Notes under the pieces: model-generated | Database searches by the model: none | What the model was told of the DNA's origin: nothing | What the model saw: the letters and a program-made list of their open reading frames with translations, nothing else | Source of the DNA: a virus | DNA length: 49,037 nucleotides | Reading direction: 5' to 3' (one strand) | IMG/VR virus record: IMGVR_UViG_3300045988_028139 | Program-made: the position numbers and the translations under genes | In this document: piece after piece, positions 4,579 through 49,037 of the stretch | Layout: each line of letters starts with the position of its first letter | Position numbering within the stretch: position 1 is the first letter of the stretch

Positions 4579-5925
4579 TTATCCTCTGACGATATGCTTC
4601 ACGGTCTTTTTACCGGAGAACTTGGCCACGGTCGTGCTGTTGAGCTCGGTGTATTCCGGTTTGATGATCTGCACACGGGTGGCTCCGATCAGATCGTCGG
4701 CCCAGTCAGGGCAGAGGATCCGCTTCCGGAGCTCGTCTGGGTTTATGTCCTGATTCAGTGTGGAGCCCTGCCAGTTGATATACTGATCAATAGCCCCGCC
4801 GGATCCTTCCACGTTCTGCACTACTTCTGACTCGTTGGCTTTAGTGGTGTAATAGGTGAGCTCTATGTCATACTCGTGAGTTTCCGGAGCTTCCACCGTT
4901 ACCATGTCAGTGAGAGGGCGAACGTCGTCCGCAGAGCAGGCAGCCAGCACGTCGGCCAGCACTTCCTCGCTCGGAATCTGTCCTCCGGCGCAGATCGGCA
5001 CGATCTTGACGCGGCCGTACATATTGCGGCCGATCTGGATCTTTACCGCCTCAGCTCCAGCGAGAGATCCGGAGAGTGAGAGAGTCAGAAGCTCGTCTGC
5101 ATACTCGGCCGTATAGTCGGCCCCTGCTGTGGCTTCGGATCCGTCACTCAGGAAAACCACCAGAGTGTCCGGCAGGAGATTGGCGCCGCCTTGGAAGGCG
5201 TGCCCGGCGTATGTTTTCAGTGTTCTGGTGATCGTTTCCTTTTCGGATTCCACCACTGCGTCCGTGACGAGAGAGTTCGCGGACAGCGCCCAGTATTTGT
5301 AGGCTTTGGCCGGGCCTGCGGTGCTGAGTTTGTTCTCAGCCTCTCGGATTCTCTCACGGTACGGTTCGTCCTCCTCACGGTCGCCGCCGCCTTCTGTTAT
5401 GGTCAGGTTCGTTACTCCGTCGAGCAGTGGAACGTCGGAGACGTCCACGATCTCGGAGATCTCGCCCTCGTCTATGTTGTTGTAGTCCGTGCCGCCTTCC
5501 TCGGCGGTTGCTGCCACGTCCACATAGAGGCTACCTGCATAAAGCACGGCTGTGGTGTCTGTCAGGAAATAGCGAACGAAGTCACCTGTTACTCGAAGTC
5601 CGGCCGGTATAATGATATTAGAGCCCACCGCTTCGGTAACTGTGAACCGTAGGGTGGTAGTGGCGTAGGTAGGATCGAGACGGATCACGTCTCTGTTTTC
5701 TCCCAGAGCGTCCAGAACAGTGCCCCTTGCATATCGGAGCATTTTCTGGCGGCAGGCGTCGTTTACTGTGTTGTAAACAGTGACGATCACCTTCGCCATG
5801 GTGTCGCCGAAGATTCGGCGCTCGTCACCGGGGTAGAGAGGCTCGCCGACGCCGTTCTCTAATTCTTCCAGTATGTCGGTGTAGATTGTTTCGTCGGTTG
5901 TCTCTATGAATTTGAGCTCGCTCAT
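4579..5925 (-). CDS. Baseplate J-like protein (gpJ/XkdT)
   Basis: 448 aa; size, position between gp25-like and gpI-like genes, and overall similarity to the baseplate J family. Confidence 0.72.
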   Translation of the reverse strand: MSELKFIETTDETIYTDILEELENGVGEPLYPGDERRIFGDTMAKVIVTVYNTVNDACRQKMLRYARGTVLDALGENRDVIRLDPTYATTTLRFTVTEAVGSNIIIPAGLRVTGDFVRYFLTDTTAVLYAGSLYVDVAATAEEGGTDYNNIDEGEISEIVDVSDVPLLDGVTNLTITEGGGDREEDEPYRERIREAENKLSTAGPAKAYKYWALSANSLVTDAVVESEKETITRTLKTYAGHAFQGGANLLPDTLVVFLSDGSEATAGADYTAEYADELLTLSLSGSLAGAEAVKIQIGRNMYGRVKIVPICAGGQIPSEEVLADVLAACSADDVRPLTDMVTVEAPETHEYDIELTYYTTKANESEVVQNVEGSGGAIDQYINWQGSTLNQDINPDELRKRILCPDWADDLIGATRVQIIKPEYTELNSTTVAKFSGKKTVKHIVRG

Positions 5926-6203
5926 GCGTCCTCGTCCTCCTTTCTTTGGATAATGTTCACGATCATGCCGAAGTCGCCAGAGAAGGCAGCCGCCGGATCT
6001 GAGGCGATACTGTCAGACTCCACGCGGGGCTCGAAGGTTTCCAGAACCCACTCCGCGTCAGCCACGGCCTCGTCGGTCGCGTTCGGTTTGTCGATCAGAG
6101 TCCCGTCAACGCCGCGCACGCGATCGTATGCGACTTCACCGCGGACGATCCTCAGTAGATTGGCGGCGCACACTTCCGGGCTCCCGTTTCCGCTTGCTCT
6201 CAT
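5922..6203 (-). CDS. Baseplate wedge protein, gpW/gp25-like
   Basis: 93 aa, contains ...FEPRVESDSI..., and overlaps the gpJ-like start by 4 nt as in P2/PBSX modules. Confidence 0.55.
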   Translation of the reverse strand: MRASGNGSPEVCAANLLRIVRGEVAYDRVRGVDGTLIDKPNATDEAVADAEWVLETFEPRVESDSIASDPAAAFSGDFGMIVNIIQRKEDEDA

Positions 6204-6215
6204 GGCGTCACCTCC

Positions 6216-6902
6216 TTATGCGAGAGTTACTTCGGACAGATACACCCAGCTATTGATCCCGTTAGGGTGGCCCAGTAGCACCTTGTTTTGGCTGCTCTTG
6301 ATCTGGCTCACCCTATGCTTTCGTTGTTTTACCCAGTTTGGTATCTTCTGGCCGGTTGCGTACCTGCTGCCGGTCGGCTTCACATAGTCGCCGACTTTGA
6401 TCGTTTTCTTTTTGGCCTTTTTGGCCGCTGTGTTGGTTGTTTTCTTGACGGACTTCGAGGCGGTGCTCGCTTTCACATTCAGCGCGGTGGTGCTTACCTT
6501 CACGCTGGTGGTGGCCGGATCGTATTCCTTGAATGTGAAGGAAAGAGTGGCCAGAAGCAGCCGCCCCTTGCCGTCCACCTTTGTGTTGCTTACCGCGACT
6601 TTTCGGAGCTGGAGCTTCGGCCCCAGCTTCTTGCCGCCGAGATAGAAATAATTCACTTTTGTGACGAGAGCCTTCCAGCTCTGGATCTCCGCCCATACGT
6701 CAACGCCTGCGCCTGAGTGCAGCACGGTGGTGAATGAGAGGGGGAAAAGCTCGGTGCCTCGTTCGTTAGTCGTCTTTTTGTCCTCGGTGCTGGTGTTTTC
6801 GTCGGCCACCTGCTCGTAGGAAAAGGCCAGCCCCTCCAGCGCGACGACTTGTTTTGATGATACGGCCCATTTTTTTGAGCCCCACTGTGCCATTGTTGGC
6901 AT
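6216..6902 (-). CDS. Baseplate-region protein with a C-terminal SH3-like (cell-wall-binding-type) domain
   Basis: 228 aa. The C-terminal IKVGDYVKPTGSRYATGQKIPNWVKQRKHRVSQIK...INSWVYLSEV resembles the endolysin C-terminus (46062..47645). Confidence 0.5.
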   Translation of the reverse strand: MPTMAQWGSKKWAVSSKQVVALEGLAFSYEQVADENTSTEDKKTTNERGTELFPLSFTTVLHSGAGVDVWAEIQSWKALVTKVNYFYLGGKKLGPKLQLRKVAVSNTKVDGKGRLLLATLSFTFKEYDPATTSVKVSTTALNVKASTASKSVKKTTNTAAKKAKKKTIKVGDYVKPTGSRYATGQKIPNWVKQRKHRVSQIKSSQNKVLLGHPNGINSWVYLSEVTLA

Positions 6903-6914
6903 GGCTGTACCTCC

Positions 6915-7265
6915 TTAGTTTGGTTTTTTAGTGGATCCGCTGCCCGTTTCGACGCCTCCGTGGGTGTGCCCGCTCAGGCTTATGCCGCGAGCTGTGACGT
7001 CGCCCTTCGGTACGTTGATATTACCGGCCGAGAGGCTCGGCAGGTAGCACCCCCATTCACCGTCCGCCCGGCCCAGCAGTAGCCCGGTGGAGTCGTCAAA
7101 CTCCACATAAACCACCGCCGTGCCTTTTGAGAGGTTTCCGGTGGATCCGCGGAGGTGCCACGGGATCGTGATCTTTGCGGTTGGCTTAGCCCCGGCGTCA
7201 GACGGTACAACGCGGGCCGTGTTTCCTGATATGCTGGCGATCGTGCCTTTATTGATGTTTCCCAT
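6915..7265 (-). CDS. Small baseplate/spike-region protein (gpV/XkdR position)
   Basis: 116 aa, placed between the gpD-like and baseplate genes. The call is based on position only. Confidence 0.4.
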   Translation of the reverse strand: MGNINKGTIASISGNTARVVPSDAGAKPTAKITIPWHLRGSTGNLSKGTAVVYVEFDDSTGLLLGRADGEWGCYLPSLSAGNINVPKGDVTARGISLSGHTHGGVETGSGSTKKPN

Positions 7266-8182
7266 TAGTAGCCCTCCAGAATGTGTCGGAAGTAGATCGT
7301 GGATTTATTTCCGACAAAATCATGCCGGACTTTATACACAAAAACGGTACCGTCCCACATGGTTGCCCTTGGTGTTGATAGTGTCAAAATGCTGGCGGCT
7401 GCATATCCGGTCATAAGTGACTTGGAAAAGTATCCGGATCGGGCGAACTTGTTCGCGTTCCGCAGCAGCCCCTTGGCGAAGCGTGCCGCCTCTGCATTGC
7501 TGGTTACCTGAATAGGCACCGCAGGGCGGAGCACTGAGCTGTTGGAGCTGTTGGCTATAAATTTTCCGGAGTAGCTTCCGCTTGCAATTTCGCAGGATCC
7601 GTACATTCCGCCCCGGTTGTCCTCATAGGAGAAAACGCCGTTTTCATCTACGGAGAGACTACCGGCTGGAGTCTGCCCCTCTATGTACTGCTCGTTATAC
7701 GCCAGCAGCTTGCCGTCAAATATAAGCATTTGGCAGCCTTCCAGAGTGCAGAGCCGGTGGAATAGGGCGAAGTCTGTCTCGTTGTCCTGCTTAATATACG
7801 GGTAAACCTGATCCGCGCAGCCGTAGTTCTGGAATGTTAGTCCGTGATTTCCTGCGAACTCATTCGCCAGTTGCAGGAACCGGACGCCCTCCCAGCTTTT
7901 GCTCTTTTTTGTCTTGCCGCTTTTTGGCATGGACATGGCTCGGATCGTAAAAAGCCCGTTTTCTGGTTTCATGGAGTGCACGAACATTTTCCCGGTATCA
8001 CTCGCGCCTTCTTTGAATTGCACGGTGTCACCTTCGGCCGGTTGCCACTTGCTCCATGTTCCCTTGGTGTCATTGAAGCGGATCACGAGGGTGTCGGCTT
8101 GCTTTTCTGCGAACATTTCGTGCACGCAGTAGTTCACCGACACGTCCCCGTATATATCCACCCCGTTGTAGTAGAGGTTCAC
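7265..8182 (-). CDS. Tail protein, late-control-D/XkdQ-like
   Basis: 305 aa. Contains ...QLANEFAGNHGLTF...IKQDNETDFALFHRLCTLEGC..., typical of the gpD family. It follows gpX-like and the tape measure. Confidence 0.7.
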   Translation of the reverse strand: MNLYYNGVDIYGDVSVNYCVHEMFAEKQADTLVIRFNDTKGTWSKWQPAEGDTVQFKEGASDTGKMFVHSMKPENGLFTIRAMSMPKSGKTKKSKSWEGVRFLQLANEFAGNHGLTFQNYGCADQVYPYIKQDNETDFALFHRLCTLEGCQMLIFDGKLLAYNEQYIEGQTPAGSLSVDENGVFSYEDNRGGMYGSCEIASGSYSGKFIANSSNSSVLRPAVPIQVTSNAEAARFAKGLLRNANKFARSGYFSKSLMTGYAAASILTLSTPRATMWDGTVFVYKVRHDFVGNKSTIYFRHILEGY

Positions 8183-8427
8183 GCGCTGTCGTCCTCGTCC
8201 TCAGAGTCCCGACGCCACGGCGGCAGAGTTTCCGGCGTCTCTGCACCTTCGACGATCGGCAGCCGGAGGGCCACGTTCGCGTCGAAGATCAGCACGTCCG
8301 CATAGTCGGGGTTAAATTCTGCGATATAGTGCGCCAGCATTTCCTCCCCGTACATTTCGAGGGCCAGCGCGTCGAAGGTGTCCCCTTCGCGTGTCGTGTA
8401 GTCTTTGTAGCCTGTTACTCTACGCAT
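8179..8427 (-). CDS. Tail protein X (P2 gpX-like, LysM-like fold)
   Basis: 82 aa. TREGDTFDALALEMYGEE...NPDY...ALRLPIVE...LPPW parallels P2 gpX. Confidence 0.72.
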   Translation of the reverse strand: MRRVTGYKDYTTREGDTFDALALEMYGEEMLAHYIAEFNPDYADVLIFDANVALRLPIVEGAETPETLPPWRRDSEDEDDSA

Positions 8428-11400
8428 ATTGAGCCACCTCCCGCATTTTTATAAATTCTTCCAGCCAGTCGAAGAACTCGGCCTCGTGGGCTTTGAGCTT
8501 CGCCATGAAGTCGTCCGCGTCGTCGCCGGTTCCTTCTGTCTGGATCTGTGGGCTCCATGTGAAACCGGAGAAGTCGTAGTAAACTACCACGCCGCCACTG
8601 TCTGCCAGACTTCCGAGAGAGAAGTCGTCCAGAGTCAGAAGCCTTCCGGCCGTGCTTGTGAGTCCTTCGCCAGAAGATCCGCCGGTTGTGCTTGCAGTGT
8701 TGAACACTGAGGTGATCATGGTTTCCAACTTATCCCAGAGGGTTGCAAGAGGAACCACCGCCTCGGCGCCAGCTTCACCACCAGCCAGAAGATTGTTACC
8801 TGCTGCGCCGAAAATAGTCGGGCGCGTCAGAATACCGCCGTCCTTGTACCATGAAATACCGAAGTGTGGTACGCTTGGCGGGTTGATCGAGAAGCTGCCG
8901 CTGATACTCACATGAGGGAGTTTCAGGTGTGGCAGGCTCCACGAGAAATTAAACTTTGATTTTAGGGCGCTGATCGCGTTTCCTACGGCGTCCCTTGCTG
9001 CCGACATTTTGCTGCTGATCGTCGAGTAAATACTGGAGAACTTACCCGACACTGTGCTGAGTGCGGAGCTGAGTCCTGAACTCATGGTGGAAGTGATTCC
9101 ACTCATTAAGCTGGAAACGGTAGACTTTGCGCTGCTCAGTTTGCTGCTGATCGTGCTCCGGATGCTTTCCCATTGAGAGGAAGCGGTAGAGCTCACACTT
9201 GACCACGCAGAGCTTGCCACGCTGGTGATCGTACTCGTTGCCGAGCTTACGGCGGAACTGGCCGCCGAGATCTTGCTGCTCACTGTGGAGCTGATTGTGT
9301 TCCAGAGAGAGGAAGCCGTGGAGCTTACGCTTGACCATGCGGAACTTGCCACGCTGGTGATCGCACTCGTCGCGGTGCTTACTTTCTCCTTGGCTGCGTC
9401 GATTTTGGAACCGATCGTGCCCTTGATTCCTTCCCAGAGGGAGGAAGCCGTGGAGCTGATCGCGTTCCATGCTGCGCTTGCTACGTTGGAGATCGCAGTC
9501 GTCACCGTGGTGATCTTTTCTTTTACGGCGTCGATTTTTTCGCCGATCACGCTCTTGATAGTCTCCCAGATAGAGAGCACCGTGTCCTTGCAGTTTTCCC
9601 AGATAAACCGAAACGGCAGCGTGATGATCTGGAAGGCTGCGCTGATAATTTCCTTCACGGCCATGATCCCGACGGTCACAATGTTTTTAATTGTTTCCCA
9701 TGCTCCGGACAAAAATCCGGTGATTGAGTCCCAGATATTCGTGAAGGTGTCGTGGATCTCGGTCATGGTTCCGGTAACGCTCGAATAAATTCCGGATAAA
9801 ATTCCGGAGAAAAACGAGACGATCGCGTTCCATGTGTCCGTGAAAAATGTTTTGATTCCCGTCAGGATTCCGGAGAAAAACGACGAGATCGCGTTCCATG
9901 TGTCTGAGAAAAATGTTTTAACATTCGTCCAGACGGTTTCCCAGTCGGTGCCGAACCAGCCCAGAACGGTGTCCGCCAGAGAGGTGAACGTGCTGATCCA
10001 GTTCTCGAAGGTTGCCACAACGAAGTCCCAGACTGCGCCGAAAATTTCTTGGACGCCCTGCCATACCATGTCCCAGTCACCGGTAAAAATTCCGGCGAAG
10101 ATGTCAAACAGGCCGGTCAGAATGTCGAGGGCCTCGTTCAGAATATTGCTGATCTGCTGGAATACGCCCTCGAAAATCGGAGCGAGCACCTCGCAGAAGC
10201 CGTCCCAGACTGCCTTCATTACTTCGGTTATGTCCTCGAACTCGAACCCCAGCGCGTTGAGCCTGTCCACAATTCCTTGCCCGAACTCGTCGAACTTGGC
10301 CTTGATTCCGTCCCAGATCGCTGTGATCTTGTTCCTAAATTCTTCGTTGTTTTTCCATAAATTCGTAAAGGCGAGAGCCACGGCCGTGATCACTGCGATA
10401 ATAGCAATAGCCGGAAGCGATACGCCTCCCAGTGCTGCAGCGAGTTTTACCAGTGCGCCCTTCACCATTGCGATCTTGCTCGATATGGTTCCCCAGTTCA
10501 TAGCCGCGATAACGGCACCGAGGCCGCTCACCGCTATGGTCACTTCTGGGATATGTCCGCCGAGCCATTCGATCGCCGGGATCACGCCGTTGGTGATAAA
10601 CTGCACACCTGCTCGTAGCTTACTTTCCAGCGCGTCGTAAATTTTGAGCCCCAGTTCCTCGAAGGCGCTGTTCATTGCCGCCACGTCGCCGCTGAGGTTG
10701 TCGTTCATAATATTGGCCATTTCCTCAGCGGATCCAGAAGCTCCGCGGAGTTCTTCCTCGTACCCGGCGATATTGTCCATGCCTTCGTTGAGGATCAGGT
10801 TCAGGCCCTTGGTGGAGTCTGCGGTAAAAGTGGAAGATAGCGCGACGGCTCGTTCTGCGTCGCCCATTCCATTTGTGGCGGCTTCCACTTCTGTGAGAAT
10901 GTCGGTGAGATCTCGGAAGTTGCCCTGTGCGTCCATTACGGCCACGGAGGTTTCTCCGATCTTGATCGCGCCGTCCTTCATTCCGTTGGTTATGTCTCGC
11001 ATAATCGCGGCCATTGCGGTTCCGGCTTCGGATCCTTTGTAACCTTGGTTTGCCATTCCTTCGAGCAGCGAGGTGACGGTTTCGACGTCCTGCCCGGCTG
11101 CATTTAAGTTGGCTGCGCAGTTCTTGTAGGCTTCGCCCAGTGCTTCGGCCGTGGTGTTGCTGTGGCTTTGCGCGTAGGAGAGCAGATCTGCGAAGTATGC
11201 GGCGTCTCCGGCCTCCATGGCGAAGGCGCTCAGGTAGTCCGTTACCATGTCGGAAGCTGCTCCCAGTTCCATGCCAGAAGCGGCGGCCAGATTCAGAACG
11301 CCGCCCAACGCACTTGTGGACTGATCAGCGTCCCACCCGGCGAGGCTCATGTATTTGAGGGCCTCGGCTGCATTGCTGGCCGAGAAAACCGTGGTGGCGC

Positions 11401-24191: not shown

Positions 24192-24879
24192 ACTTCATGG
24201 CCTGCTGGACGTGGTGGGTGAATCTCTTTTCCAGTCCTTCGCTGATCATTGCCTCGATCGTTTCCTTCGCTCGGCCGTCGATCATCTGGGGGACTGATAA
24301 AGTGTGGACAGCTTCCAGCGGGCCGCGCCCGGAGCCGGTTCTTTGAAATGGAATGGCGGGCACCTTACCCGCCCCCATGAATGTGTTGTCCGGGAGCCTT
24401 GCTCGCTGTCCTTTTATAATCTGGGCGGTTATCTGATACGGTGCCGGTGGTCGAACCGTTCCAACTTCCGGGGAGCTGTTCAGCATTTGGCCGGGAATTA
24501 GGATAGGAGCCCGGCGGCGCTTTGTTGGTCTGCTCTTTGGTGACATCTTGAAGTGTGTCGGCGTCAGTGTGCGGCCTTTATATTCCAGCGTCGCCCCGTC
24601 AACAGATACCCCCGCGACATTTATGTGGGTGGCCCCTCTCTTTTTTTGAGGCCCGGCACTCTTGATCGCGGCGGTGTCAACTCCGTAATGCTGGCGGATT
24701 CCCTTCGATACCCACGCGGGAGCTCTGGAGTTGAAGTCGGATACGGTTCGCTGGATCGCTACCTTGCCCCCGTTTTCGAGCTTGGCGATCTGCTTTGCCA
24801 GTTTGGCGCCGTCCTTCATGGTGACAGTGAAGGCGCCGCTGGTGTGCCTGCCTGATCCGGAGTAAAACAAATTGCTCAT
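24190..24879 (-). CDS. Virion-type protein, tentatively lambda gpZ-like (internal start ATG at 24879)
   Basis: 229 aa from the RBS AAAGGAGG-spaced ATG. The architecture loosely parallels minor tail protein Z; this is a weak call. Confidence 0.35.
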   Translation of the reverse strand: MSNLFYSGSGRHTSGAFTVTMKDGAKLAKQIAKLENGGKVAIQRTVSDFNSRAPAWVSKGIRQHYGVDTAAIKSAGPQKKRGATHINVAGVSVDGATLEYKGRTLTPTHFKMSPKSRPTKRRRAPILIPGQMLNSSPEVGTVRPPAPYQITAQIIKGQRARLPDNTFMGAGKVPAIPFQRTGSGRGPLEAVHTLSVPQMIDGRAKETIEAMISEGLEKRFTHHVQQAMK

Positions 24880-24905
24880 GTGCGCCCCTCCTTTCTGATT
24901 TTGGG

Positions 24906-24940
24906 TATAAAAATACCGCCTTGGGTTTTCCCTTGGCGGT
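24906..24940 (-). terminator. Rho-independent terminator
   Basis: ACCGCC-AA-GGG-AAAA-CCC-AA-GGCGGT followed by AUUUUUAU on the minus strand. Confidence 0.6.
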
Positions 24941-24949
24941 AGTGGTTGG

Positions 24950-25564
24950 TTATTTTGTTTTGGTTCCGTTCGGTGTGAACTCGTGGAGAACATTGTCCGG
25001 TGTTTCTATTCGGATCATGTTCCCAGATATTTTGGCCGAGAACTGGAGCGTCGCGCGTCCTTCGGAGCTGTAATGGATCTTTTTTCTCCAGCTCGCTGCG
25101 GTAGAGAGGTTGATCAGTTTAACATTGACGGCCGGGATCTCTTTGTCGTTCTCGTCGTAGTCGCTGTCGGCGTCGTATACCACAACGCAGAACTCAGGGG
25201 TGAGAGCCCATGCGTCGAGGATAGCGTCCCCGCAGAGTTTCTTCGTGGCGGCTTTTCCTTCGCTCAGAGTAAAGAGAGTGCCTTCGTCGCTCAGTGCGTA
25301 GCCGATCCCGTCGTCAGTTATAACGGCGTCCTCTATGAGTTCCTCCGTTTTTCTTATCCGGATTCCTCTCACCTTTGTTGCGATCGCGATCCCTTCGTTT
25401 GCGTTTGCGTCCATTCCCGTGAGAATATAATACTCGCCAGACTGAGAGGCCCACGCTTTGTCAGCGTCGAACCACTCCTTGCCGTTTCTCGTGAAAATAC
25501 CCGGCTTTCCGTTTCTCTGTGAGATCTCCCAGCTTTCTGCCTTGGTTCCGTTATTTAATCCCAT
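24950..25564 (-). CDS. Hypothetical protein
   Basis: 204-aa ORF with RBS AAGGAGG and its own near-consensus promoter. Confidence 0.6.
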   Translation of the reverse strand: MGLNNGTKAESWEISQRNGKPGIFTRNGKEWFDADKAWASQSGEYYILTGMDANANEGIAIATKVRGIRIRKTEELIEDAVITDDGIGYALSDEGTLFTLSEGKAATKKLCGDAILDAWALTPEFCVVVYDADSDYDENDKEIPAVNVKLINLSTAASWRKKIHYSSEGRATLQFSAKISGNMIRIETPDNVLHEFTPNGTKTK

Positions 25565-25586
25565 TGTGGTGTCCTCCTTATGGTTT

Positions 25587-25603
25587 AGTCATCTTTGGGA
25601 TAT
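25587..25603 (-). promoter_or_regulatory. Third copy (opposite strand) of the promoter-proximal 17-mer ATATCCCAAAGATGACT
   Basis: 15/17 identical to TTATCCCAAACATGACT at 44564 and 44619. It abuts the TATAAT box, as copy 2 does. Confidence 0.7.
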
Positions 25604-25631
25604 TATACAACGGAGCGGCGGTGCTTATCAA
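25602..25631 (-). promoter_or_regulatory. Sigma70-like promoter TTGATA-18 nt-TATAAT
   Basis: Read on the minus strand, about 35 nt upstream of the 25564 start. Confidence 0.6.
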
Positions 25632-25755
25632 TCCTCCGTCCGGAAAATTTGCACCCCTCCCAGTTCTTTTCTGAGGGTAGGCACATAGGAAAAACCGCCC
25701 GGATCTTTATCATGTCCCCGGACGGCTTTCGCTGTTATACAGAGTAGCACGGTGG

Positions 25756-25795
25756 TTTATCCCCTTTTATCCCTTTTTGTCCCTTTTTATCCCCC
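25756..25795. repeat. Four 10-bp-phased units (T3-5 A/G T C3-5; minus strand GGGATAAAA-type A-tracts)
   Basis: tttatcccc ttttatccc tttttgtccc tttttatccccc, with the AT/GT step at 25759, 25769, 25779 and 25789. Confidence 0.8.
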
Positions 25796-25857
25796 TATGT
25801 GCTCGTGAGCGCTCCGCCTGTTGCTTTCTCCTGAGTGGGTGCGTATTTCTTCGAGTG

Positions 25858-25901
25858 CACAAAAAAGCCCGCCGTCGGCCTTCCTGTGGCTTCTGGCGGG
25901 C
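25858..25901 (-). terminator. Probable terminator after the late-regulator gene
   Basis: GCCCGCC...GGCGGGC (21-nt loop) followed by UUUUUUGU. Confidence 0.45.
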
Positions 25902-25905
25902 GTTG

Positions 25906-26409
25906 TTATCCCTGTTCTTGTTTTGCTCTGTATATTCTGGCCAGCGATTGAAGCGCCGAGCCGTGCAGCTTGAATGTTCTTTTGAGGTAGCGCTGCTCGT
26001 GTTCGTCGTAGTCCTCCCGGCTACCATGAAGCGCGGCGCATACTGTCCACCAGTTCGCTGCGTCGAAGTAGTGCATTTCTAACACGGTCTGCTCGTCCGG
26101 CTTTTCCATTTCGGAGATCAGGGCCTCCAGTTCGCTGCGTTCCTGATCCTCGTCTGCGATCATGCGGCGGATCGTTTCCTCCAGTGTTACCTTCTGGATC
26201 ACTTGCCGTTCTTGTTTGCTGGTTCCGTCGCCACCGCCTCCGGATATTCCGTCGAAGCTCGGCGAGGATATGGAGCCCATGACGGCCTCCAGATTCTCCA
26301 GCCGTTCGATCTGGTTGTCGATCCTGCGGTGGAGTGCTGCGTAGCTTTCCAGCTTTTTCTTGATCTCGTCGGTTTCCTTCGGCTGTTTTGCCTCACTGTT
26401 CTTGTGCAT
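25906..26409 (-). CDS. Putative late-gene transcriptional regulator (sigma-70 region-4-like)
   Basis: C-terminal ...TVLEMHYFDAANWWTVCAALHGS...RTFKLHGSALQSLARI resembles r4-type phage regulators. It lies upstream of the packaging genes, and the ATG at 26409 has the better RBS spacing. Confidence 0.45.
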   Translation of the reverse strand: MHKNSEAKQPKETDEIKKKLESYAALHRRIDNQIERLENLEAVMGSISSPSFDGISGGGGDGTSKQERQVIQKVTLEETIRRMIADEDQERSELEALISEMEKPDEQTVLEMHYFDAANWWTVCAALHGSREDYDEHEQRYLKRTFKLHGSALQSLARIYRAKQEQG

Positions 26410-41346: not shown

Positions 41347-42162
41347 CTATCCAGCGGCCAGCCTGCTGCATAGCTGCCTCATAAGCAGCCGCTTGTATTT
41401 CTTCCGGGTTCTCCATTTCCGTGCGTGTTTGTATAGGTGCCACCATTTCGGGTGGGTGTTGGCTCTATATAGTAGGGAGTCCACAAAAGCGTCCACGGCT
41501 TTTCGTGCGTATTGCCGGAACTTCTGGAACCGTTCCGCGAGCACGTCCATGAGTTGTCGGACTGCGCGAGCTGCTGCCTTCATTGCGTCGGCGAGAGCGT
41601 CGAGCAGGGCGGTGGCGGCAGGTGGACCGATCTGGATCGTGAGCTCTGTGTGCTGAGGTTCTGGTGGCGACTCGTCCGGGAGTAGATCGCTTCGCGATTG
41701 ATCCGCAGTTATGAGCTGTTGGCGCTTCTCGTAGTCCTCGACGCTCATGTAACCGTCAAATATGTAGGGATCCGGTTCCTCGGTGGTTTCCTTGCCGTAC
41801 CATGGCATATCTGCCGGGAGATTTTCCGGGCGTGGTATCGGCTCAGGAGGGAAGGCCGTCGAGTTTTTCAGGAGATTGCAGCCGCCTTCGTAGTGCCAGA
41901 GAATACCGGCCTCCAGTTCTGCGATCGTCATGTTCTCGCCGAAGTGCCCGCAGTAGTAGCCGTTCACCATGACAGCGTTCGGATCCTGCTCCAGAATTTC
42001 GGTGGCAGTGCTCAGATCCTCCAGCTCGAAGGTGTCGGAGTCCGAATTGAGCCAGACACTTTCGGCGTGCCAGCTTCGGCCTGTTTTCCATATAATCACC
42101 CACGCTATACCGTCGCGGATTTCTTCGGCGTACTGCCGAGCTATTTCATGTAATGCTGCCAT
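41347..42162 (-). CDS. Hypothetical protein (start ATG at 42162)
   Basis: 271 aa with RBS AAAGGAG; no motif recognised. Confidence 0.55.
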   Translation of the reverse strand: MAALHEIARQYAEEIRDGIAWVIIWKTGRSWHAESVWLNSDSDTFELEDLSTATEILEQDPNAVMVNGYYCGHFGENMTIAELEAGILWHYEGGCNLLKNSTAFPPEPIPRPENLPADMPWYGKETTEEPDPYIFDGYMSVEDYEKRQQLITADQSRSDLLPDESPPEPQHTELTIQIGPPAATALLDALADAMKAAARAVRQLMDVLAERFQKFRQYARKAVDAFVDSLLYRANTHPKWWHLYKHARKWRTRKKYKRLLMRQLCSRLAAG

Positions 42163-42181: not shown

Positions 42182-42430
42182 TTATATAGTGGGGGATTTT
42201 CGCCCGCGGCACTTAAAGCTCTCAATGAGTCGGCGCTGGGCGAGTTCGGCGCTATACTCTCGGCGCATGTTCTTGTCGAGCTGGCCGGTGTCGCCTCTTT
42301 TCAGTTCTTTATAGATAGTCGCCACATGGACGCCGAGGTCGATCGCAATGTCGGCCGGACGCCCTCCGGCTGCGTATTCCGTCTCGATTTTCTCGCGGTC
42401 GCCGAATGTCAAATATCGGTAGTTTCGCAC
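42182..42430 (-). CDS. HTH-only paralog of the IS30-transposase N-terminal domain (GTG start)
   Basis: YRYLTFGDREKIETEYAAGGRPADIAIDLGVHVATIYKELKRG compared with the transposase FKHLSKSDRIRIETLNNDGKTPKEIAEVVGVHISTIYRELQRG. Confidence 0.6.
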   Translation of the reverse strand: MRNYRYLTFGDREKIETEYAAGGRPADIAIDLGVHVATIYKELKRGDTGQLDKNMRREYSAELAQRRLIESFKCRGRKSPTI

Positions 42431-42494
42431 GTTCTCACCTCTCTTTCTGTGCTTTTCAGGTAAAAAAATAATGCGTCCGGAGGCTTTCGCTTCC

Positions 42495-42548
42495 TTTCGC
42501 ATTTAATATTATCTTTTCCGGAGGGAAAAGTCAAGAGTAAATGCGAAA
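42495..42548. promoter_or_regulatory. Nested inverted repeats (outer TTTCGCATTTA/TAAATGCGAAA; inner CTTTTCC/GGAAAAG) enclosing a promoter
   Basis: Read directly in an AT-rich gap. Confidence 0.7.
42506..42534 (-). promoter_or_regulatory. Sigma70-like promoter TTGACT-17 nt-TAATAT
   Basis: Read on the minus strand. The spacer holds the inner palindrome. It drives the HTH-only gene. Confidence 0.6.
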
Positions 42549-42566
42549 AAAATTAAATAAATTTTA

Positions 42567-43610
42567 TTAGGCCCCCAAAAGGGCGTCCATTTGCTCTTGA
42601 AATACTGCACTGGCTGGCAAAAATCCGAGGATCTTCCGCGGGTAGTTGTTCAGCCAGTTTGTTATTGTCTGGATCACTTCGGCACCGATCTCGTCGAAGT
42701 TCGTCCCCTTTGGCAGCCAGCGGCGGATCATCTTGTTGAGGTTCTCGTTACTTCCGCGCTCGTATGAGCTGTACGGGTGGCAGTAGTAGCACTTCGTCCG
42801 GGATCCCTCCGCCAGTATGCTGCGCTCTATGCCGGGGCAGTCCGCAAACTCGCTGCCGTTGTCTACGGTGATCGTTTGGAACACGCGAGGAAAAAACTCG
42901 CCCCATTCCTTTTCCAGATCGTCGAGGGCTTGCACTACGCTGGCCGCGCTCTTGTCCGGGAGCTTGGCCGTGATCTCGTTACGGGTGAGCCTCTCGGTCA
43001 GGACGAGGATCGCAGCCTTGCCCGGTCTGGCACTCACTACAGTGTCCATTTCCCAGTGCCCGAAGGTGGAACGCTCGCCGATTATCTCCGGGCGTTTTTC
43101 TATACTTTCGCCTTTCGGCGCGCGCTTCTGAGTCTGTACCTTGTGGTAGCTGCGCTTCTTGTCACCCTTGACCGGGAGGTCTTTGTTTGTGAGTCTGAGG
43201 AAGATCCCCTTCTCGATATAACTGTAAATGGTGTTTTTGCTCTTGATCTCTATGTTGAACTGGAGCCCTTGCGCCTTGATTTCTCCCAGCACGGCCTCCG
43301 GGCTGTACTTTTCGTCTGCGATCTTGGTTTCTATATATTCAGCGAGGCGGCGATCGTTTCCGATTTTCAGGTCGGCGCCTTTGGCCGCAAGGTTGGCCCG
43401 GTATTTCATTTCGCTGAGGTCTGAACTGTATCGGGTTTCCTCTGTCCAGTCACTATTCCGGTGCGTGTACTGTCCGCGCTGCAGCTCGCGGTATATTGTG
43501 CTAATATGTACGCCGACAACTTCTGCGATCTCTTTCGGAGTCTTGCCGTCATTGTTCAGGGTTTCGATCCGGATCCTGTCGGATTTACTTAAGTGTTTGA
43601 ATCTTCTCAT
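42567..43610 (-). CDS. IS30-family DDE transposase/integrase (start ATG at 43610)
   Basis: 347 aa. N-terminal HTH, HWEMDTV, TVDNGSEF, YSSYERGSNENLN (DDE) and NNYPRKILG. I found no flanking terminal inverted repeats. Confidence 0.85.
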   Translation of the reverse strand: MRRFKHLSKSDRIRIETLNNDGKTPKEIAEVVGVHISTIYRELQRGQYTHRNSDWTEETRYSSDLSEMKYRANLAAKGADLKIGNDRRLAEYIETKIADEKYSPEAVLGEIKAQGLQFNIEIKSKNTIYSYIEKGIFLRLTNKDLPVKGDKKRSYHKVQTQKRAPKGESIEKRPEIIGERSTFGHWEMDTVVSARPGKAAILVLTERLTRNEITAKLPDKSAASVVQALDDLEKEWGEFFPRVFQTITVDNGSEFADCPGIERSILAEGSRTKCYYCHPYSSYERGSNENLNKMIRRWLPKGTNFDEIGAEVIQTITNWLNNYPRKILGFLPASAVFQEQMDALLGA

Positions 43611-43624
43611 GGGTTTACCTCCAA

Positions 43625-43660
43625 TATACAAAAAATGAGGGGCAGCCGAAGCCGCCCCCT
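43625..43660 (-). terminator. Rho-independent terminator (UUCG loop)
   Basis: AGGGGGCGGC-UUCG-GCUGCCCCUC followed by AUUUUUUGUAU on the minus-strand RNA. Confidence 0.75.
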
Positions 43661-43674
43661 TGAATGTGTGGTGC

Positions 43675-43935
43675 TTATTTCTCATACTCTGCTAAAAGCT
43701 CGGACGTTTCCGCGTCTGTCACTATATCTGAGAGTTTACAACTCAGTGCTTTACAGATCCGCAGCAGCGTGGAGAGCTGCGCCTTGCTTATATCCCGGTC
43801 GCCCTGTTCGTATTTCTGATACATTCGGACGTTTACCCCGGCGGCTTCCGCGAGCTGCGACTGGGAGAGGCCAGCGGCCTGTCTGAGCTTTTGCAGTTTT
43901 TCGTTTTTATAATTTACCTTTACCGTGATTTCCAT
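43675..43935 (-). CDS. XRE-family HTH regulator (Cro-like position)
   Basis: 86 aa. LRQAAGLSQSQLAEAAGVNVRMYQKYEQGDRDI. Confidence 0.8.
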   Translation of the reverse strand: MEITVKVNYKNEKLQKLRQAAGLSQSQLAEAAGVNVRMYQKYEQGDRDISKAQLSTLLRICKALSCKLSDIVTDAETSELLAEYEK

Positions 43936-43961
43936 GTGTCGGCCTCCTTCTTGACTTTGTT

Positions 43962-43999
43962 GTAGCCGGTGGATATAATAAAGGCGGTGGGTGGGATTT
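43962..43999 (-). terminator. Rho-independent terminator in the early leader
   Basis: GGCGGUGGG-9 nt-CCCACCGCC followed by UUUAUUAU. Confidence 0.62.
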
Positions 44000-44589: not shown

Positions 44590-44619
44590 TTGACTTTACC
44601 ATGGCCGGGCGCCTATAAT
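44590..44619 (+). promoter_or_regulatory. Sigma70-like promoter TTGACT-18 nt-TATAAT for the only plus-strand unit
   Basis: Read directly; flanked by the two 17-mer copies. Confidence 0.65.
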
Positions 44620-44674: not shown

Positions 44675-44803
44675 ATGGTTGGAAAGAAGGGCCCGTTCGG
44701 TGGGTTTTGTAATTATGGAATTTTTGGGATCTGGGGAAAAGATCCGGAGACAGGAAAGAAAAAGTACAAAAAGGTGGACGCTGTTTCAGAGTGGCAGCAG
44801 TAG
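44675..44803 (+). CDS. Small ORF (42 aa)
   Basis: AGGAGG lies 7 nt upstream of the ATG at 44675. MVGKKGPFGGFCNYGIFGIWGKDPETGKKKYKKVDAVSEWQQ. The listed ORF from 44670 has an RBS spacing of only 2 nt. Confidence 0.4.
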   Translation: MVGKKGPFGGFCNYGIFGIWGKDPETGKKKYKKVDAVSEWQQ

Positions 44804-45312
44804 AGAAGGCGGCAGCTCTTGGCTGCGTGGATCCGCAGAGCGTCGAGGTGATCCCGTTTCTCCCTCCGTCTGAAAAGCAGCAACGGTACGCCGCAGATCT
44901 TGGCGTTCGTCTGCCAGAAGGCTGCACGGTTGTGGACGCCACCGCGTTGCTCAGCAGGGCGGAGAATGGAAGCGATCAGGAACCCGCTCCCGGTCTTGTG
45001 GAGTACGCTCAGAGCTGTGGCGTTTGTTTCTCTACGCTGGCCGGAGAGGGTGGTCTGCTCGACTGTATGGTCTGCCAGCTTCCGATCAGGGAGAAGGCGA
45101 TCCTTTTCGCTCATGCGGTTGCTGCCAGTGTTTCCGGATCCGCTCTGGAGGATCCTCGAAAAGCTCCGCAGTATTTGAAGTTTTGCCAGTTTGCCGATCA
45201 GGTGGCGGGGGATCCTGCTCTTGCGAAGTCGGTAGAGGGCCGCGATCGCTACGACTTCCAGAAGCCAAACACGAGATCGAAGGCATACAAGGCGGCGCTG
45301 GCCTGCTTATAA
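44791..45312 (+). CDS. Hypothetical protein (GTG start), moron/immunity-side candidate
   Basis: 173-aa ORF overlapping the small ORF's end, followed by a bidirectional terminator. No motif recognised. Confidence 0.5.
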   Translation: MAAVEKAAALGCVDPQSVEVIPFLPPSEKQQRYAADLGVRLPEGCTVVDATALLSRAENGSDQEPAPGLVEYAQSCGVCFSTLAGEGGLLDCMVCQLPIREKAILFAHAVAASVSGSALEDPRKAPQYLKFCQFADQVAGDPALAKSVEGRDRYDFQKPNTRSKAYKAALACL

Positions 45313-48406: not shown

Positions 48407-49037
48407 TGTGTCACCTCCTGCGGCAGCTCTATGTCTGCCATTTCTTTGCGTTTGAAAATAATATTTTTCTCGATCCATTTCTGGAGCCCGTGAGTGGAGC
48501 AGTGGCCCATAAGTCCGAAGTAGCTCTGCATGGTCGCGTCTACCGCGTCGAAGTCGATCAGCACGGCCTCGTACTCTTTCGCTATGTAGCGCATACGTGC
48601 CTTCATTTTCTTGACCGACTGAGCTGTCGGTTTGCGGTACCCCGGATAGATTCGGCAGCCCACGAAGGTGATCCCGTGCTTGACGAGTCCGATCGTGGTT
48701 TTGCTGTTCAATTCGAGGTGCAGGACTTCGTTCAGATACTTCTCGATCGCAACCCTCCACCGGTTCAGTGTGGCCGCGTCAGGATAGAGCAGCGCCATGT
48801 CGTCCATGTATCTGTCGTAAAAATGGGCTTTCAGCTCGTGCTTGATATACTGATCCAGCTCATTGAGGCAGACGTTCGCGAGTAGCTGGCTCGTGAGGTT
48901 TCCGATCGGCATACCTACCTCGAACAGTCTTTCAGACGGTGGGATCTCGTCGGCGGACTTTCCCGGAGGCAGTCCAAAGGGTGTATGGTCGCAATTTATA
49001 ATCGTTTCCATAAGCCAGAGGTAGCCGTCCTCGTTCG
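48385..49037 (-). CDS. DGR reverse transcriptase, C-terminal part (continuation of 548..1)
   Basis: GMPIGNLTSQLLANVCLNELD, the YMDDMALL (YxDD) box and GITFVGCRIY. 48983-49037 duplicates 1-55. Confidence 0.93.
   Translation of the reverse strand, partial: NEDGYLWLMETIINCDHTPFGLPPGKSADEIPPSERLFEVGMPIGNLTSQLLANVCLNELDQYIKHELKAHFYDRYMDDMALLYPDAATLNRWRVAIEKYLNEVLHLELNSKTTIGLVKHGITFVGCRIYPGYRKPTAQSVKKMKARMRYIAKEYEAVLIDFDAVDATMQSYFGLMGHCSTHGLQKWIEKNIIFKRKEMADIELPQEVTQWELNQF
48983..49037. repeat. Terminal duplication, copy 2 (identical to 1-55)
   Basis: Direct comparison of the two ends. Confidence 0.95.

Follow-up and report, generated by a model that had tools for sequence, protein, structure and literature searches.

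A gut phage genome that appears to be a single IS30-family transposon, with a promoter signature where its ends are joined

The window, meaning the whole stretch of DNA that was analysed, comprises 49,037 nucleotides of the virus record IMGVR_UViG_3300045988_028139. Part of it carries a transposase gene, a much shorter paralog of that gene, and between them a dense cluster of repeats and putative transcription signals. The features of this locus are the following:

41347..42162, minus strand: LPD15-domain gene, next after the HTH-only gene and in the same orientation (Pfam LPD15, E 6.9e-42)
42182..42430, minus strand: HTH-only paralog of the transposase N-terminal domain, 82 aa, GTG start (HTH_38, PHROG 11420, paralogy)
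42462..42503, minus strand: hairpin with a T7 run, starting 2 nt after the -10 hexamer, its 5' arm being the IRL core (RNA folding)
42493..42520, minus strand: left terminal inverted repeat (IRL), tip at 42520 (constant end of integrated copies)
42506..42534, minus strand: junction-spanning promoter signature TTGACT-17-TAATAT, with the -35 in IRR and the -10 in IRL
42521..42522, minus strand: junction spacer of 2 bp, TC on the minus strand (variable among circle junctions)
42523..42552, minus strand: right terminal inverted repeat (IRR), tip at 42523 (constant end of integrated copies)
42567..43610, minus strand: IS30-family DDE transposase, 347 aa (profile matches; at the end of integrated copies)
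43628..43659, minus strand: intrinsic-terminator-like hairpin with a T-run, between the Cro-like gene and the transposase gene (sequence scan)
43675..43935, minus strand: Cro-like XRE-family HTH gene, 86 aa, directly upstream of the transposase gene (Pfam HTH_3, E 1.8e-12)

The transposase matches the NCBIfam profile NF033563 (IS30 family transposase) over its full length (positions 1-267) with 238 bits, against a cut-off of 80. Pfam finds an HTH_38 domain at residues 4-46 (E 2.9e-11) and an rve core. Residues D189, D250, and E289 are unchanged throughout an alignment to which the bona fide IS30-family element IS1070 was added, and the protein shares 26-32% identity over its full length with ISSba16, IS1070, and ISLsa1; no IS30-family relative was found in the PDB. 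A Cro-like gene likewise precedes the transposase gene in relatives. The terminator-like stem between the two genes (43659-43638, minus strand) has 9 bp, seven of them G-C pairs, and the tail CATTTTTTGT, and no promoter-like site was found between this terminator (43628-43659) and the transposase start. An earlier reading of the window, made from its sequence alone, had described an IS30-type DDE protein directly behind a Cro-like gene and its terminator, and both the transposase with its intact triad and the arrangement upstream of it are borne out.

The 82-aa protein contains HTH_38 as its only Pfam domain (residues 4-46), is 35% identical to the transposase N-terminus over 78 aa (E 1e-13), and fits the 82-position family PHROG 11420 end to end. 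It is thus a duplicate of the transposase HTH, as the sequence-only reading had proposed; the 106-aa version of the ORF annotated in GenBank is probably over-extended. The gene is intact in relatives from eight lineages, with pN of 0.19-0.42 versus pS of 0.6-0.9 (reported in place of dN/dS because synonymous sites are saturated in most of these comparisons). It experiences purifying selection similar to that acting on the transposase gene and is not decaying. A decayed IS, which the sequence-only reading had kept as an option, is contradicted by the intact catalytic triad together with the selection on the HTH-only gene. The adjoining LPD15 gene opens an early region with FGE-like, exonuclease, Gam, ERF, and SSB genes, the order of which is conserved.

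Over the 11 kb tested, the window is 96.4% identical in nucleotide sequence to the phage Lagaffe, and the two are syntenic gene for gene across the whole genome, including all 65 Lagaffe genes. Judged by this synteny, the window holds a complete tailed-phage gene set; it is closely related to the Faecalibacterium phage Lagaffe, one of the "IScream" phages of the gut. In the Lagaffe record (Lagaffevirus lagaffe; MG711461 / NC_047911) the transposase is annotated as 'integrase, IS30 transposase family' and is followed by the HTH-only gene, as in the window. A Pfam scan of 10 larger unannotated proteins gave no tyrosine or serine recombinase domain, and no recombinase appears among the precomputed Pfam labels of called genes in about 20 kb around the junction or in the annotation of the syntenic Lagaffe record, in agreement with the earlier failure to recognize one.

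The gene content of the locus is not new. The text of Cornuault et al. (2018; PMC5883640) already calls the Lagaffe integrase IS30-type, and it reports direct repeats flanking the prophage, cos-type packaging, and the production of virions. According to the text of Wirbel, Hickey et al. (Nature 2025; PMC12823448), a two-gene layout defines the IScream phages. The window has this layout: a full-length IS30 transposase faces outward from one end of the prophage, an IS30-derived gene lacking the catalytic domain faces inward from the opposite end, and, as in IScream phages, no other integrase was found among the proteins and annotations covered. The ends of the experimentally studied IScream phage L106 (CP022413.2) are identical to those of the window; this relative, from B. 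hansenii, yields circles and DNase-protected DNA, as stated in the text of PMC12823448. An IS30 transposase in the place of an integrase, accompanied by a truncated paralog, has therefore already been published (2018, 2025) and is by itself a re-discovery. The main texts covered by a literature search contain no description of ends, duplications, targets, or junction promoters for IScream or Lagaffe phages, and the text of PMC12823448, figures and supplements aside, does not mention inverted repeats, target duplications, target motifs, or promoters. What is added here is the position of the ends to the base, the lengths of the spacer (2 bp) and of the target duplication (15 bp), the single pair of ends, a target rule tied to promoters, and a predicted promoter that is split by integration.

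The ends were located in integrated copies. In 28 such copies with differing host flanks, homology at the right end stops after ...CTTTTCCC, and in 18 copies with differing host flanks the left end starts at CGGAAAAG; BLAST homology to three copies (L002-L004) ends at window positions 42521-42523. Taken together, homology stops exactly within the inverted repeat in more than 45 independent bacterial contexts, with the transposase gene at one end and the HTH-only gene at the other. The arms of this repeat (42495-42519 and 42524-42548) are 25 nt each, 84% complementary, and separated by 4 nt. On the minus strand, IRR reads TTTTTTTCGCATTTACTCTTGACTTTTCCC and includes the core TTTCGCATTTA and the -35 hexamer, while IRL reads CGGAAAAGATAATATTAAATGCGAAAGG and includes the -10 hexamer and the core TAAATGCGAAA. 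What the sequence-only reading had described as nested inverted repeats around a promoter are consequently both prophage ends, abutted head to tail around a spacer of 2 variable bp, as is the case in IS30 circles. The same reading had missed terminal inverted repeats around the transposase gene; there is indeed no inverted repeat flanking the gene on its 5' side, but the nested repeats are themselves the terminal repeats of the phage. The text of PMC5883640 likewise leaves the terminal inverted repeats of Lagaffe unrecognised and expects inverted repeats at the integration site instead. The terminal bases of the two ends are C...C, making them an imperfect inverted pair.

The head-to-tail junction, consisting of the IRR tip at 42523, the 2-bp spacer, and the IRL tip at 42520, is the attP equivalent. 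In the inserted element, the right end is closed by the outward-reading transposase gene, whose stop codon lies 44 bp from the tip in every integrated copy, and the left end opens with the HTH-only gene, which starts 90 nt inside the left tip. The transposase serves as the phage integrase, pointing outward from the right prophage end, which supports the earlier suggestion of a DDE-based integration and excision module. A 55-bp overlap is common to both ends of the window, which indicates a circular assembly, and it is this circular or virion form of the genome that places the repeats side by side. In the integrated element, the terminal repeats enclose the entire 48,982-bp phage genome. The best overall explanation, which we consider probable, is a phage genome of 48,982 bp that in its entirety constitutes a single IS30-family transposon and is represented in the window in circular or virion form.

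These boundaries bear directly on the possibility that the gene belongs to an ordinary or decayed IS30-family insertion sequence, carried as a passenger by a phage that integrates through another, unrecognised recombinase. The protein is a typical IS30-family transposase and insertion sequences are common in phage genomes, yet 42567-43610 is bracketed by neither inverted repeats nor a duplication, as expected from the earlier judgement that this is not a simple IS insertion. Moreover, the limits of the prophage match the repeats beside the gene with single-base precision in all of the more than 45 contexts, the module is conserved in relatives down to 54% identity, and the sets of proteins scanned contained no other recombinase. 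The junction data already refute a passenger IS, and we attach practically no probability to it.

A different reading is offered in the text of PMC12823448, which models IScream phages as composite-transposon-like: two IS30 elements would flank the phage cargo, with the inward one deprecated and decaying (Wirbel et al., 2025). The two genes are paralogous, and the small one may go back to another copy of the IS or to a duplicated transposase gene. The inward IS30-derived gene also varies in length among relatives and is sometimes fused to other domains, according to the text of PMC12823448, and in one relative (L041) it is fused to an XRE-type HTH. A composite transposon, however, has two IS copies, each with its own pair of repeats, and only a single pair was found here. 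The 11-nt core TTTCGCATTTA has two exact occurrences in the 49-kb window, both in the junction repeat, and no inner repeat lies beside the transposase or the HTH-only gene anywhere in the window. Since the core is confined to the two outer ends, the element has one pair of ends only and is a single transposon, not a composite one. The small gene, furthermore, is constrained by purifying selection to a similar extent as the transposase gene, keeps a constant place behind a conserved promoter signature, and forms a phage protein family of its own. We consider the composite-transposon reading very unlikely. The 15-bp duplication and promoter-proximal targets described below are further points that the text of PMC12823448 does not mention.

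The dinucleotide between the ends is informative about excision. Junctions of the form ...CCC-NN-CGG... carry TC, TT, GG, or AG as NN in otherwise identical sequences, and sister sequences in two other lineages (L135/137/141; L183/184) differ at the spacer dinucleotide alone. The spacer is missing from integrated copies. CP085988.1 contains a tandem prophage junction, the spacer of which (TT) is identical to the final two bases of the left flank and differs from the first two of the right flank; this is the one genome in which the flank origin of the spacer could be discriminated. Pattern scans of public collections for circle junctions returned one viral and three metagenome contigs, a number that shows spacer variation but does not support statistics. 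These junction sequences suggest that excision follows the IS30 circle pathway, in which the 3' end of IRR would be joined 2 nt outside IRL. Such joining would leave a circle with two flank-derived bases, which vary between phage isolates.

A close known counterpart is the minicircle and (IS30)2 dimer of E. coli IS30, studied in the Olasz/Kiss laboratory, which involves a DDE transposase of the same family. IS30 circles and dimers have a 2-bp spacing between the ends and a promoter, Pjunc (PMC9333248). In the IS30 intermediate, as in the window junction, the abutted ends are separated by 2 bp and the spacer is lost on insertion; the tandem dimers of IS30 are likewise matched by the tandem prophage junction in CP085988.1. 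The N-terminal HTH, terminal inverted repeats of about 20-30 bp, and the 2-bp-spaced junction are IS30-family traits found in the window. Two others are absent, namely a duplication of 2-3 bp and a compact element of about 1-1.5 kb with the transposase alone: the cargo here is a 49-kb cos-packaged myovirus genome.

The target duplication departs from the IS30 family. It is 15 bp long in all five cases in which both ends are visible (L089/L108; L091/L111; L199; L020, with 66% transposase identity; and L052, with 56%), which come from three lineages. IS30 itself duplicates 2 bp. The sequence-only reading had proposed to inspect prophage ends for IS30-like inverted repeats, which are there, and for a duplication of 2-3 bp, which is not. 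Since 2-3 bp is usual for IS30, the 15 bp seen here require a geometry of strand transfer other than that of the textbook element. By analogy with IS30 biochemistry, the transposase would cut at the 3' tips and join them to staggered positions in the target. Two copies within one genome (L025 and L028) have ends of the family type and no clean target duplication. An exchange of their flanks through inversion between the copies was considered and rejected, as the four flanks, compared visually, do not fit.

Instead of using one attB, the element inserts into many sites of common geometry. Beyond the left end stands a host promoter of the sigma-70 type directed away from the element; the insertion point falls 24-27 nt upstream of its -35, and a T-run is found directly outside the duplicated 15 bp. 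For promoters with a -35 at this distance, a match at 9 or more of 12 positions is seen in 11 of 18 left flanks and one at 11 or more in 8 of 18, against 2% and 0%, respectively, of 860 control windows. The left-junction set includes nine additional junctions from a scan with a left-end DNA pattern; an exact-protein look-up of the LPD15 gene for further left junctions gave no match. Target geometry in the relatives L020, L028, and L052 is the same as in the close kin of the window. On the right flank, apart from a T immediately following the duplication, no mirror-image motif or promoter was found, and the target is accordingly asymmetric. IS30, by comparison, targets palindromic hot spots or its own repeats, whereas this element is found upstream of host promoters. 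Promoter-proximal insertion could in part reflect selection on surviving lysogens and not target choice, but the fixed distance from the promoter argues for the latter.

Joining of the ends also brings together two hexamers that resemble a bacterial promoter. The sequence-only reading had assigned TTGACT-17-TAATAT to the small gene as its own promoter; the signature is present (42534-42506, minus strand) but is assembled from both ends of the element. All 24 distinct junctions of relatives, which span transposase identities of 55-99%, contain TTGAC[AT], followed after 17 nt (22 junctions) or 18 nt (2 junctions) by TAnnAT. The sequence between the hexamers is not conserved, and the flanking inverted cores co-vary. 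After integration, the hexamer standing where the -35 should be agrees with TTGACA in no more than 3 of 6 positions in 17 of 18 copies. The predicted promoter would therefore exist only when the ends are joined and would be destroyed by integration in those 17 copies.

IS30 also has a promoter across its IRL-IRR junction, to which the window signature may correspond. Pjunc drives the IS30 transposase, whereas the promoter predicted here faces the HTH-only gene and the early genes. Because the transposase gene lies upstream of the junction, behind a terminator, a junction promoter cannot drive it, unlike in IS30. Judging by sequence conservation, the joined ends may create a strong promoter aimed at the HTH-only gene and the early recombination and replication genes. 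Integration would split this promoter, so that early transcription from it would be possible only in injected or excised DNA. An analogous dependence on joined ends is known from Tn916, in which one set of genes is expressed only in the excised circular form, as transcription from a complete promoter reads through the joint. The joined ends would alter transcription in the window as they do in Tn916, except that here the promoter itself appears to be split into its -35 and -10 halves.

Alternatively, the hexamers and the hairpin that follows them could be by-products of the requirements of transposase binding, without a transcriptional role, and other promoters could drive the early genes. The support for a promoter comes from sequence, the -10 of the window (TAATAT) matches at 4 of 6 positions, AT-rich ends readily resemble promoters, and a scan returns 10 promoter-like sites in 4.7 kb where 2.2 are expected. 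Against this, the 24 junctions keep the hexamers and their distance while the 17 nt in between diverge almost completely, which is the pattern expected of a promoter and not of a binding site. Junction promoters are also known from IS30 and other circle-forming ISs, and the inner stem of the hairpin is altered by compensatory substitutions. We judge a by-product to be rather unlikely.

For the read-through RNA, the hairpin has a predicted folding energy of -14 kcal/mol, and its outer stem can no longer form in an RNA that begins at least 8 nt past the -10. In other lineages the hairpin is present with different inner stems. It probably acts as a terminator of read-in transcripts, ending those that enter from the host or from the transposase gene. 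Transcripts from the junction promoter, in contrast, would begin within the 5' arm of the hairpin and so would escape termination.

The HTH-only protein is a candidate regulator of this arrangement. It has a recognition helix in common with the transposase, and a parallel change from I/V to R is seen in both proteins of L187 and L190. Most likely, to judge from these sequences, it binds the same core sites as the transposase, and these sites flank the -35 and abut the -10 of the junction promoter. Several insertion elements encode an end-binding domain without the catalytic core that regulates the element itself, as exemplified by InsA of IS1, OrfA of IS911, and Inh of Tn5. These proteins are made from the transposase gene via frameshifting or alternative starts, whereas the HTH-only gene of the window is a separate, diverged paralog (35% identity) at the opposite end of the element. 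By analogy with InsA and OrfA, binding of the HTH-only protein could repress the junction promoter, compete with the transposase, or both.

It is also conceivable that the protein is a positive accessory or directionality factor, which would help to form the synaptic complex and bias the reaction towards excision or integration in the manner of an excisionase. The evidence from its domain, conservation, and position is identical to that for a repressor, and expression from joined ends alone would suit a protein needed right after infection or excision. However, the known N-terminal-only derivatives named above are inhibitors or repressors, and the core site is placed directly beside the -10 and the probable start of transcription, a classic position for a repressor operator. 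In addition, IS30 itself does not need an accessory protein (PMC9333248). A positive role is possible but doubtful, and a repressor remains our preferred assignment.

Combined, these elements outline a scheme in which integration is itself a genetic switch. An early promoter would be split by insertion, a hairpin would insulate the early genes, the HTH-only protein would tune both promoter and transposase, and the transposase, cutting with a 15-bp stagger, would place the prophage in a 'safe harbour' 24-27 nt upstream of the -35 of an outward-reading host promoter. We rate the chances of this scheme as evenly balanced. No part of it appears in the texts of the two papers on these phages (PMC5883640, PMC12823448). 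If confirmed, it would explain how the lysis-lysogeny state is coupled to DNA topology in very abundant gut phages of unusually broad host range, and how they insert into many genomes without damaging genes. The target rule could also aid in calling prophage boundaries for IScream-type phages in metagenomes.

Phages that integrate by transposition have precedents. Mu, like Faecalibacterium phage Mushu, resembles the window in being a tailed temperate phage with a DDE transposase, many insertion sites, and a target duplication. Mu itself is characterized by transpositional replication, MuA and MuB, 5-bp duplications, and host DNA packaged at its ends. In the window, by contrast, the ends are joined with no more than 2 bp between them and no further host DNA, and the transposase is IS30-type; MuA/MuB-type proteins and host DNA on packaged ends, which mark the Mu-like class, are absent. 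The window also differs from Mu in its annotated lambda-like terminase genes, and the text of PMC5883640 reports a cos site. The IS30 transposase was shown to be capable of replacing the lambda integrase, a precedent being the lambda-IS30 chimeric phage of Kiss et al. (2003).

The window and Lagaffe can be compared in detail. The HTH-only gene differs by 1 nt in 321, and the neighbouring genes are 95-97% identical. The two sequences diverge in a segment near 24.3-25.9 kb, and a 1-nt deletion in the window frameshifts its sole opposite-strand gene. The junction spacer is TC in the window and AA in Lagaffe. The GenBank junction of Lagaffe (CC-AA-CGG) is one C shorter than all other junctions, and this short C run may be a homopolymer error.

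The region is 96.4% identical to Faecalibacterium phage FP_Lagaffe, whose annotated genes all map to the window in unchanged order. Positions 1-55 and 48983-49037 of the window are the same 55 bases, so the window represents a circularly assembled phage genome with a true length of 48,982 bp; an identity of 55 bases is typical of a circular contig from an assembler with k=55. The sole segment clearly departing from Lagaffe (window ~24274-25906) carries a neck-protein gene that is 65% identical and an additional ORF of 204 aa with an ATG start.

The Lagaffe GenBank record labels the transposase 'integrase, IS30 transposase family'. The original description calls this integrase atypical and of the IS30 family, and reports that direct repeats flank the prophage and that the phage makes virions with cos ends (Cornuault et al., 2018; PMC5883640). 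According to a later study, such phages form a class, named 'IScream phages', with a full-length IS30 transposase pointing outward at one end and a truncated IS30 gene pointing inward at the other; the prophages are read there as composite-transposon-like, ~1,780 candidates are counted in a gut virus catalogue, and circles were seen experimentally in B. hansenii (Wirbel, Hickey et al., Nature 2025; PMC12823448). The two publications mean that an IS30-type transposase in the integrase position, as flagged in the sequence-only reading, and the interpretation preferred there were already known. By every testable feature, the locus belongs to this published group. The anatomy described below was not found in the text of these two papers or of other searchable papers, as far as that text was available. 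It extends what they state by the exact ends, the single-transposon architecture, a 15-bp duplication and promoter-proximal targeting, as well as by a promoter split on integration, a putatively insulating hairpin and an HTH-only partner under selection.

The genes of the region all lie on the minus strand. A transposase, an HTH-only paralog and a promoter embedded in inverted repeats had been noticed from the sequence alone, and each particular is borne out at these coordinates:

Features around the transposase gene (window coordinates)
42182-42430, minus strand: HTH-only gene, 82 aa, GTG start behind GAGAGGTGA, downstream of the transposase
42495-42519 and 42524-42548: inverted repeat arms of 25 nt, 84% complementary, 4 nt apart
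42534-42506, minus strand: predicted promoter TTGACT-17-TAATAT, found by sequence scan between the transposase and the HTH-only gene
42567-43610, minus strand: IS30-family transposase, 347 aa, NCBIfam IS30-family model
43659-43638, minus strand: strong terminator-like hairpin after the Cro-like gene
43675-43935, minus strand: XRE-type HTH (Cro-like) gene, 86 aa, upstream of the transposase

The transposase matches the NCBIfam model over its whole length (238 bits, cut-off 80) and contains the Pfam domain HTH_38 at residues 4-46 and an rve core. Residues D189, D250 and E289 are the same in every aligned sequence, among them that of IS1070, a bona fide IS30-family element, and full-length identity to named plasmid-borne IS30-family transposases is 26-32%.

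The phage ends were located by fetching bacterial contigs that encode the transposase and comparing them with the window. In three integrated copies, each next to different host DNA, homology breaks off at 42521-42523. Exact-protein look-ups with the HTH-only, transposase and Cro-like gene products supplied further copies and a DNA pattern scan added left ends, for a total of 18 left and 28 right junctions, all distinct. On the minus strand of the window, all integrated copies begin CGGAAAAGATAATATTAAATGCGAAAGG... and finish ...TTTTTTTCGCATTTACTCTTGACTTTTCCC, with the HTH-only gene first at the left end and the outward-pointing transposase as last gene at the right end. The window presents both ends abutted: the right tip (42523), two bases, and the left tip (42520). 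The 11-nt core TTTCGCATTTA has exact matches in the two arms only across the 49 kb; as it is absent elsewhere, there is one pair of ends, and the phage is one IS30-type transposon rather than a passenger carried by a pair of insertion sequences.

Seven further joined-end copies, from viral contigs, metagenome contigs, one bacterial chromosome and the Lagaffe record, match the window except at the two central bases, where TC, TT, GG and AG are found; the Lagaffe record alone has AA and one C fewer. That junction (L001, MG711461, 30420-30460) reads CTTTTCC-AA-CGGAAAAG; the other junctions and the integrated right ends all have one C more, and the shorter run may be a homopolymer error in the GenBank record. 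In two other lineages, sister sequences differ at the spacer dinucleotide only. A variable 2-bp spacer of this kind is the distinguishing mark of circles and (IS30)2 dimers of IS30, where 2 bp taken from the donor flank separate the abutted ends (PMC9333248). The chromosome CP085988.1 contains both prophage ends and an internal end-to-end junction, indicating either a tandem prophage, the analogue of the (IS30)2 dimer, or circle reads assembled into the chromosome. Its TT spacer matches the two final bases of the left flank but not the first two of the right flank; this one informative case fits a model in which the right repeat attacks with its 3' end at a point 2 nt outside the left one. The left end, the internal right-end/left-end junction (spacer TT) and the right end lie in loci L090/L110, L091 and L111 (~3,874,605; 23,654; 72,524), with an apparent first copy of ~41 kb and a second of 48.9 kb, and the tandem could be an assembly artefact from circle reads.

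All five insertions with both ends visible are flanked by a target duplication of 15 bp, whereas typical IS30 members duplicate 2-3 bp:

Target duplications of 15 bp
GTTTTTTTTAATTTT and AGTTTTTCCCGCCTT
TGGACAGTGGCGTTA, in L199, a viral contig
AAATTGTTGTTACCG, in relative L020 (66% transposase identity)
AATTTCGACGCCGGG, in relative L052 (56% transposase identity)

Two copies of a related element in one genome (L025 and L028, both OY760624.1) have family-type ends, but neither copy shows a matching 15-bp duplication.

Insertion sites are many, yet not random. A T-run lies directly outside the duplicated 15 bp in the 18 left flanks and, on the opposite strand, these flanks carry a sigma-70-type promoter match that points outward from the prophage. 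The distance between the junction and the start of the -35 is 24-27 nt in 11 of the 18 at ≥9/12 matches and in 8 at ≥11/12, compared with 2% and 0% of 860 control windows (other offsets, the other strand and right flanks). The relatives L020, L028 and L052 have like geometry (26-27 nt). Host genes beside the prophages, including rpsF, rplS and gyrB, are mostly transcribed away from the phage. No mirror-image signal was seen on the right flank, so the target is asymmetric. The transposase may read DNA sequence, DNA shape (A-tract plus TTGAC) or a promoter-bound protein. Survival selection on lysogens may also contribute to the promoter-proximal pattern, but the fixed distance argues for direct target choice.

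Smaller elements were also encountered. L199 (IMGVR_UViG_3300023718_000067, 7,959 bp) holds a 7.7-kb element with authentic Lagaffe ends and a 15-bp duplication, in which only the left 7.4 kb of the phage (window 35090-42520) is present, joined to its last 245 bp (window 42522-42766). Either this element is a deletion derivative that lacks the transposase or the contig is a chimera. L020 (~4990-11086, ~6 kb) and L052 (6125-11083, ~5 kb) run from left end through HTH-only gene, Cro-like gene and transposase to right end within a 15-bp duplication. Both are too small for phages; the module exists also on small non-phage or satellite-like elements.

Joining of the ends places the promoter's -35 (42534-42529) within the right repeat and its -10 (42511-42506) within the left; of the 17 nt between them, the right tip contributes 6 nt, the left tip 9 nt and the spacer 2 bp. 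Junctions in which a transposase relative is directly followed by an HTH-only homolog, in circular or tandem forms, were collected from genome and viral contigs. All 24 distinct cases (the window's own included; transposase identities 55-99%) have TTGAC[AT] and TAnnAT, separated by 17 nt in 22 and 18 nt in two. The intervening nucleotides are almost wholly different, and the flanking inverted cores co-vary (CGCGATAA/TTATCGCG, CGCAATAA/TTATTGCG, CTGCTTTTA/TAAAAGCAG, CGCACTTA/TAAGTGCG). In 17 of 18 integrated copies, the host hexamer replacing the -35 matches TTGACA at no more than three positions. DNA that has been injected or excised would thus allow early transcription from the junction promoter, and the prophage would not. 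IS30 likewise forms a junction promoter, Pjunc, which drives its transposase (PMC9333248). In contrast, the promoter here faces away from the transposase, towards the HTH-only gene and an early region that contains replication genes as well as LPD15, FGE-like, exonuclease, Gam, ERF and SSB genes. On sequence grounds, the locus belongs to the IS30 family by its transposase, its repeats, the 2-bp junction and the signature of a junction promoter; it departs from the family in duplication length, size, target and the gene faced by the junction promoter.

In every lineage, the left core begins 0-2 nt past the -10 and has a pairing partner 20-45 nt downstream, a third inverted copy that is followed by a T-run; the inner stems vary by lineage while complementarity is kept. 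In the window, read-through RNA folds at -14 kcal/mol immediately before U7, and RNA starting at least 8 nt after the -10 loses the outer stem. The hairpin may act as a terminator for transcripts arriving from the host or the transposase gene, which junction-promoter transcripts would escape because they start within its 5' arm.

The HTH-only protein consists of HTH_38 alone (Pfam), is 35% identical to transposase residues 1-78 (E 1e-13) and fits the 82-position PHROG 11420 end to end. GenBank and gene callers give a 106-aa ORF (window 42182-42502, minus strand) whose ATG falls within the core of the left repeat (TAAATGCG); what relatives and PHROG 11420 conserve is the 82-aa form, which has a GTG start and a strong ribosome-binding site. 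The exact 106-aa product occurs in 8,710 blocks of an assembly collection, against 25 for the exact transposase. Between an integration module and a decayed insertion sequence, the two options left by the earlier reading, the module is upheld: homologs are intact in eight lineages, with pN of 0.19-0.42, far below a saturated pS of 0.6-0.9, and the gene is thereby rejected as a decaying remnant. These values resemble those of the transposase. Compared with Lagaffe, one nucleotide differs in the 321 of the ORF; neighbouring genes are 95-97% identical.

The paralogs are most alike at the recognition helix, VH(I/V)(S/A)TIY(R/K)E, and two lineages with altered cores have the same I/V-to-R change in both proteins, suggesting that the HTH-only protein binds the transposase's cores. 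One core lies just upstream of the -35 and another abuts the -10. Most economically, the protein would repress the junction promoter, compete with the transposase, or do both; N-terminal-only regulators have precedents in IS1 InsA, IS911 OrfA and Tn5 Inh. A positive, excisionase-like role is possible. In L041 (11140-11676), a homolog is C-terminally fused to an XRE-type HTH domain, in keeping with the remark in the IScream study that fusions of the inward gene to other domains sometimes occur (PMC12823448).

In a working model whose entry step, insertion outcome, split promoter and circle structure rest on comparison of sequences, the remainder being what we infer, virion DNA enters with an uncut junction, since on the circular genome ~18.6 kb separate it from cos. 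The junction promoter would then fire the early operon, including the HTH-only gene. The transposase gene appears to have no promoter of its own and sits behind the terminator of the Cro-like gene, so that its protein would be made at low level by read-through. The genome is inserted upstream of a host promoter, with a 15-bp duplication and loss of the spacer, for which the transposase would cut both tips; at the sequence level, integration splits the junction promoter. Upon induction, transcription of the regulatory operon ending in the transposase would allow a circle with a 2-bp spacer to be copied or cut out, rebuilding the promoter.

A 13-nt inverted repeat (92% complementary; window 42531-42543 and 42588-42600) joins the right terminal repeat (CATTTACTCTTGA) to the 3' coding end of the transposase gene (TCAAGAGCAAATG) and might serve as an additional site for the transposase or form a 3' structure in the mRNA. 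The regulatory region contains three near-consensus promoters (11/12), at 43951-43979 (plus), 44590-44619 (plus) and 44244-44216 (minus), which together look like a genetic switch: one diverges from a 91-aa HTH gene toward the opposite-strand gene, one lies upstream of a 41-aa ORF and the Cro-like gene, and one is antisense, just upstream of the Cro-like gene. The sole opposite-strand gene (window 44675-45312, plus strand; 212 aa, function-unassigned PHROG 20233), a candidate lysogeny gene, is oriented divergently from the HTH regulators. Compared with Lagaffe and L090, the window has a 1-nt deletion at ~44790 that splits this ORF into 42-aa and 173-aa pieces; the deletion may be a genuine mutation of the clear-plaque type or have arisen in assembly.
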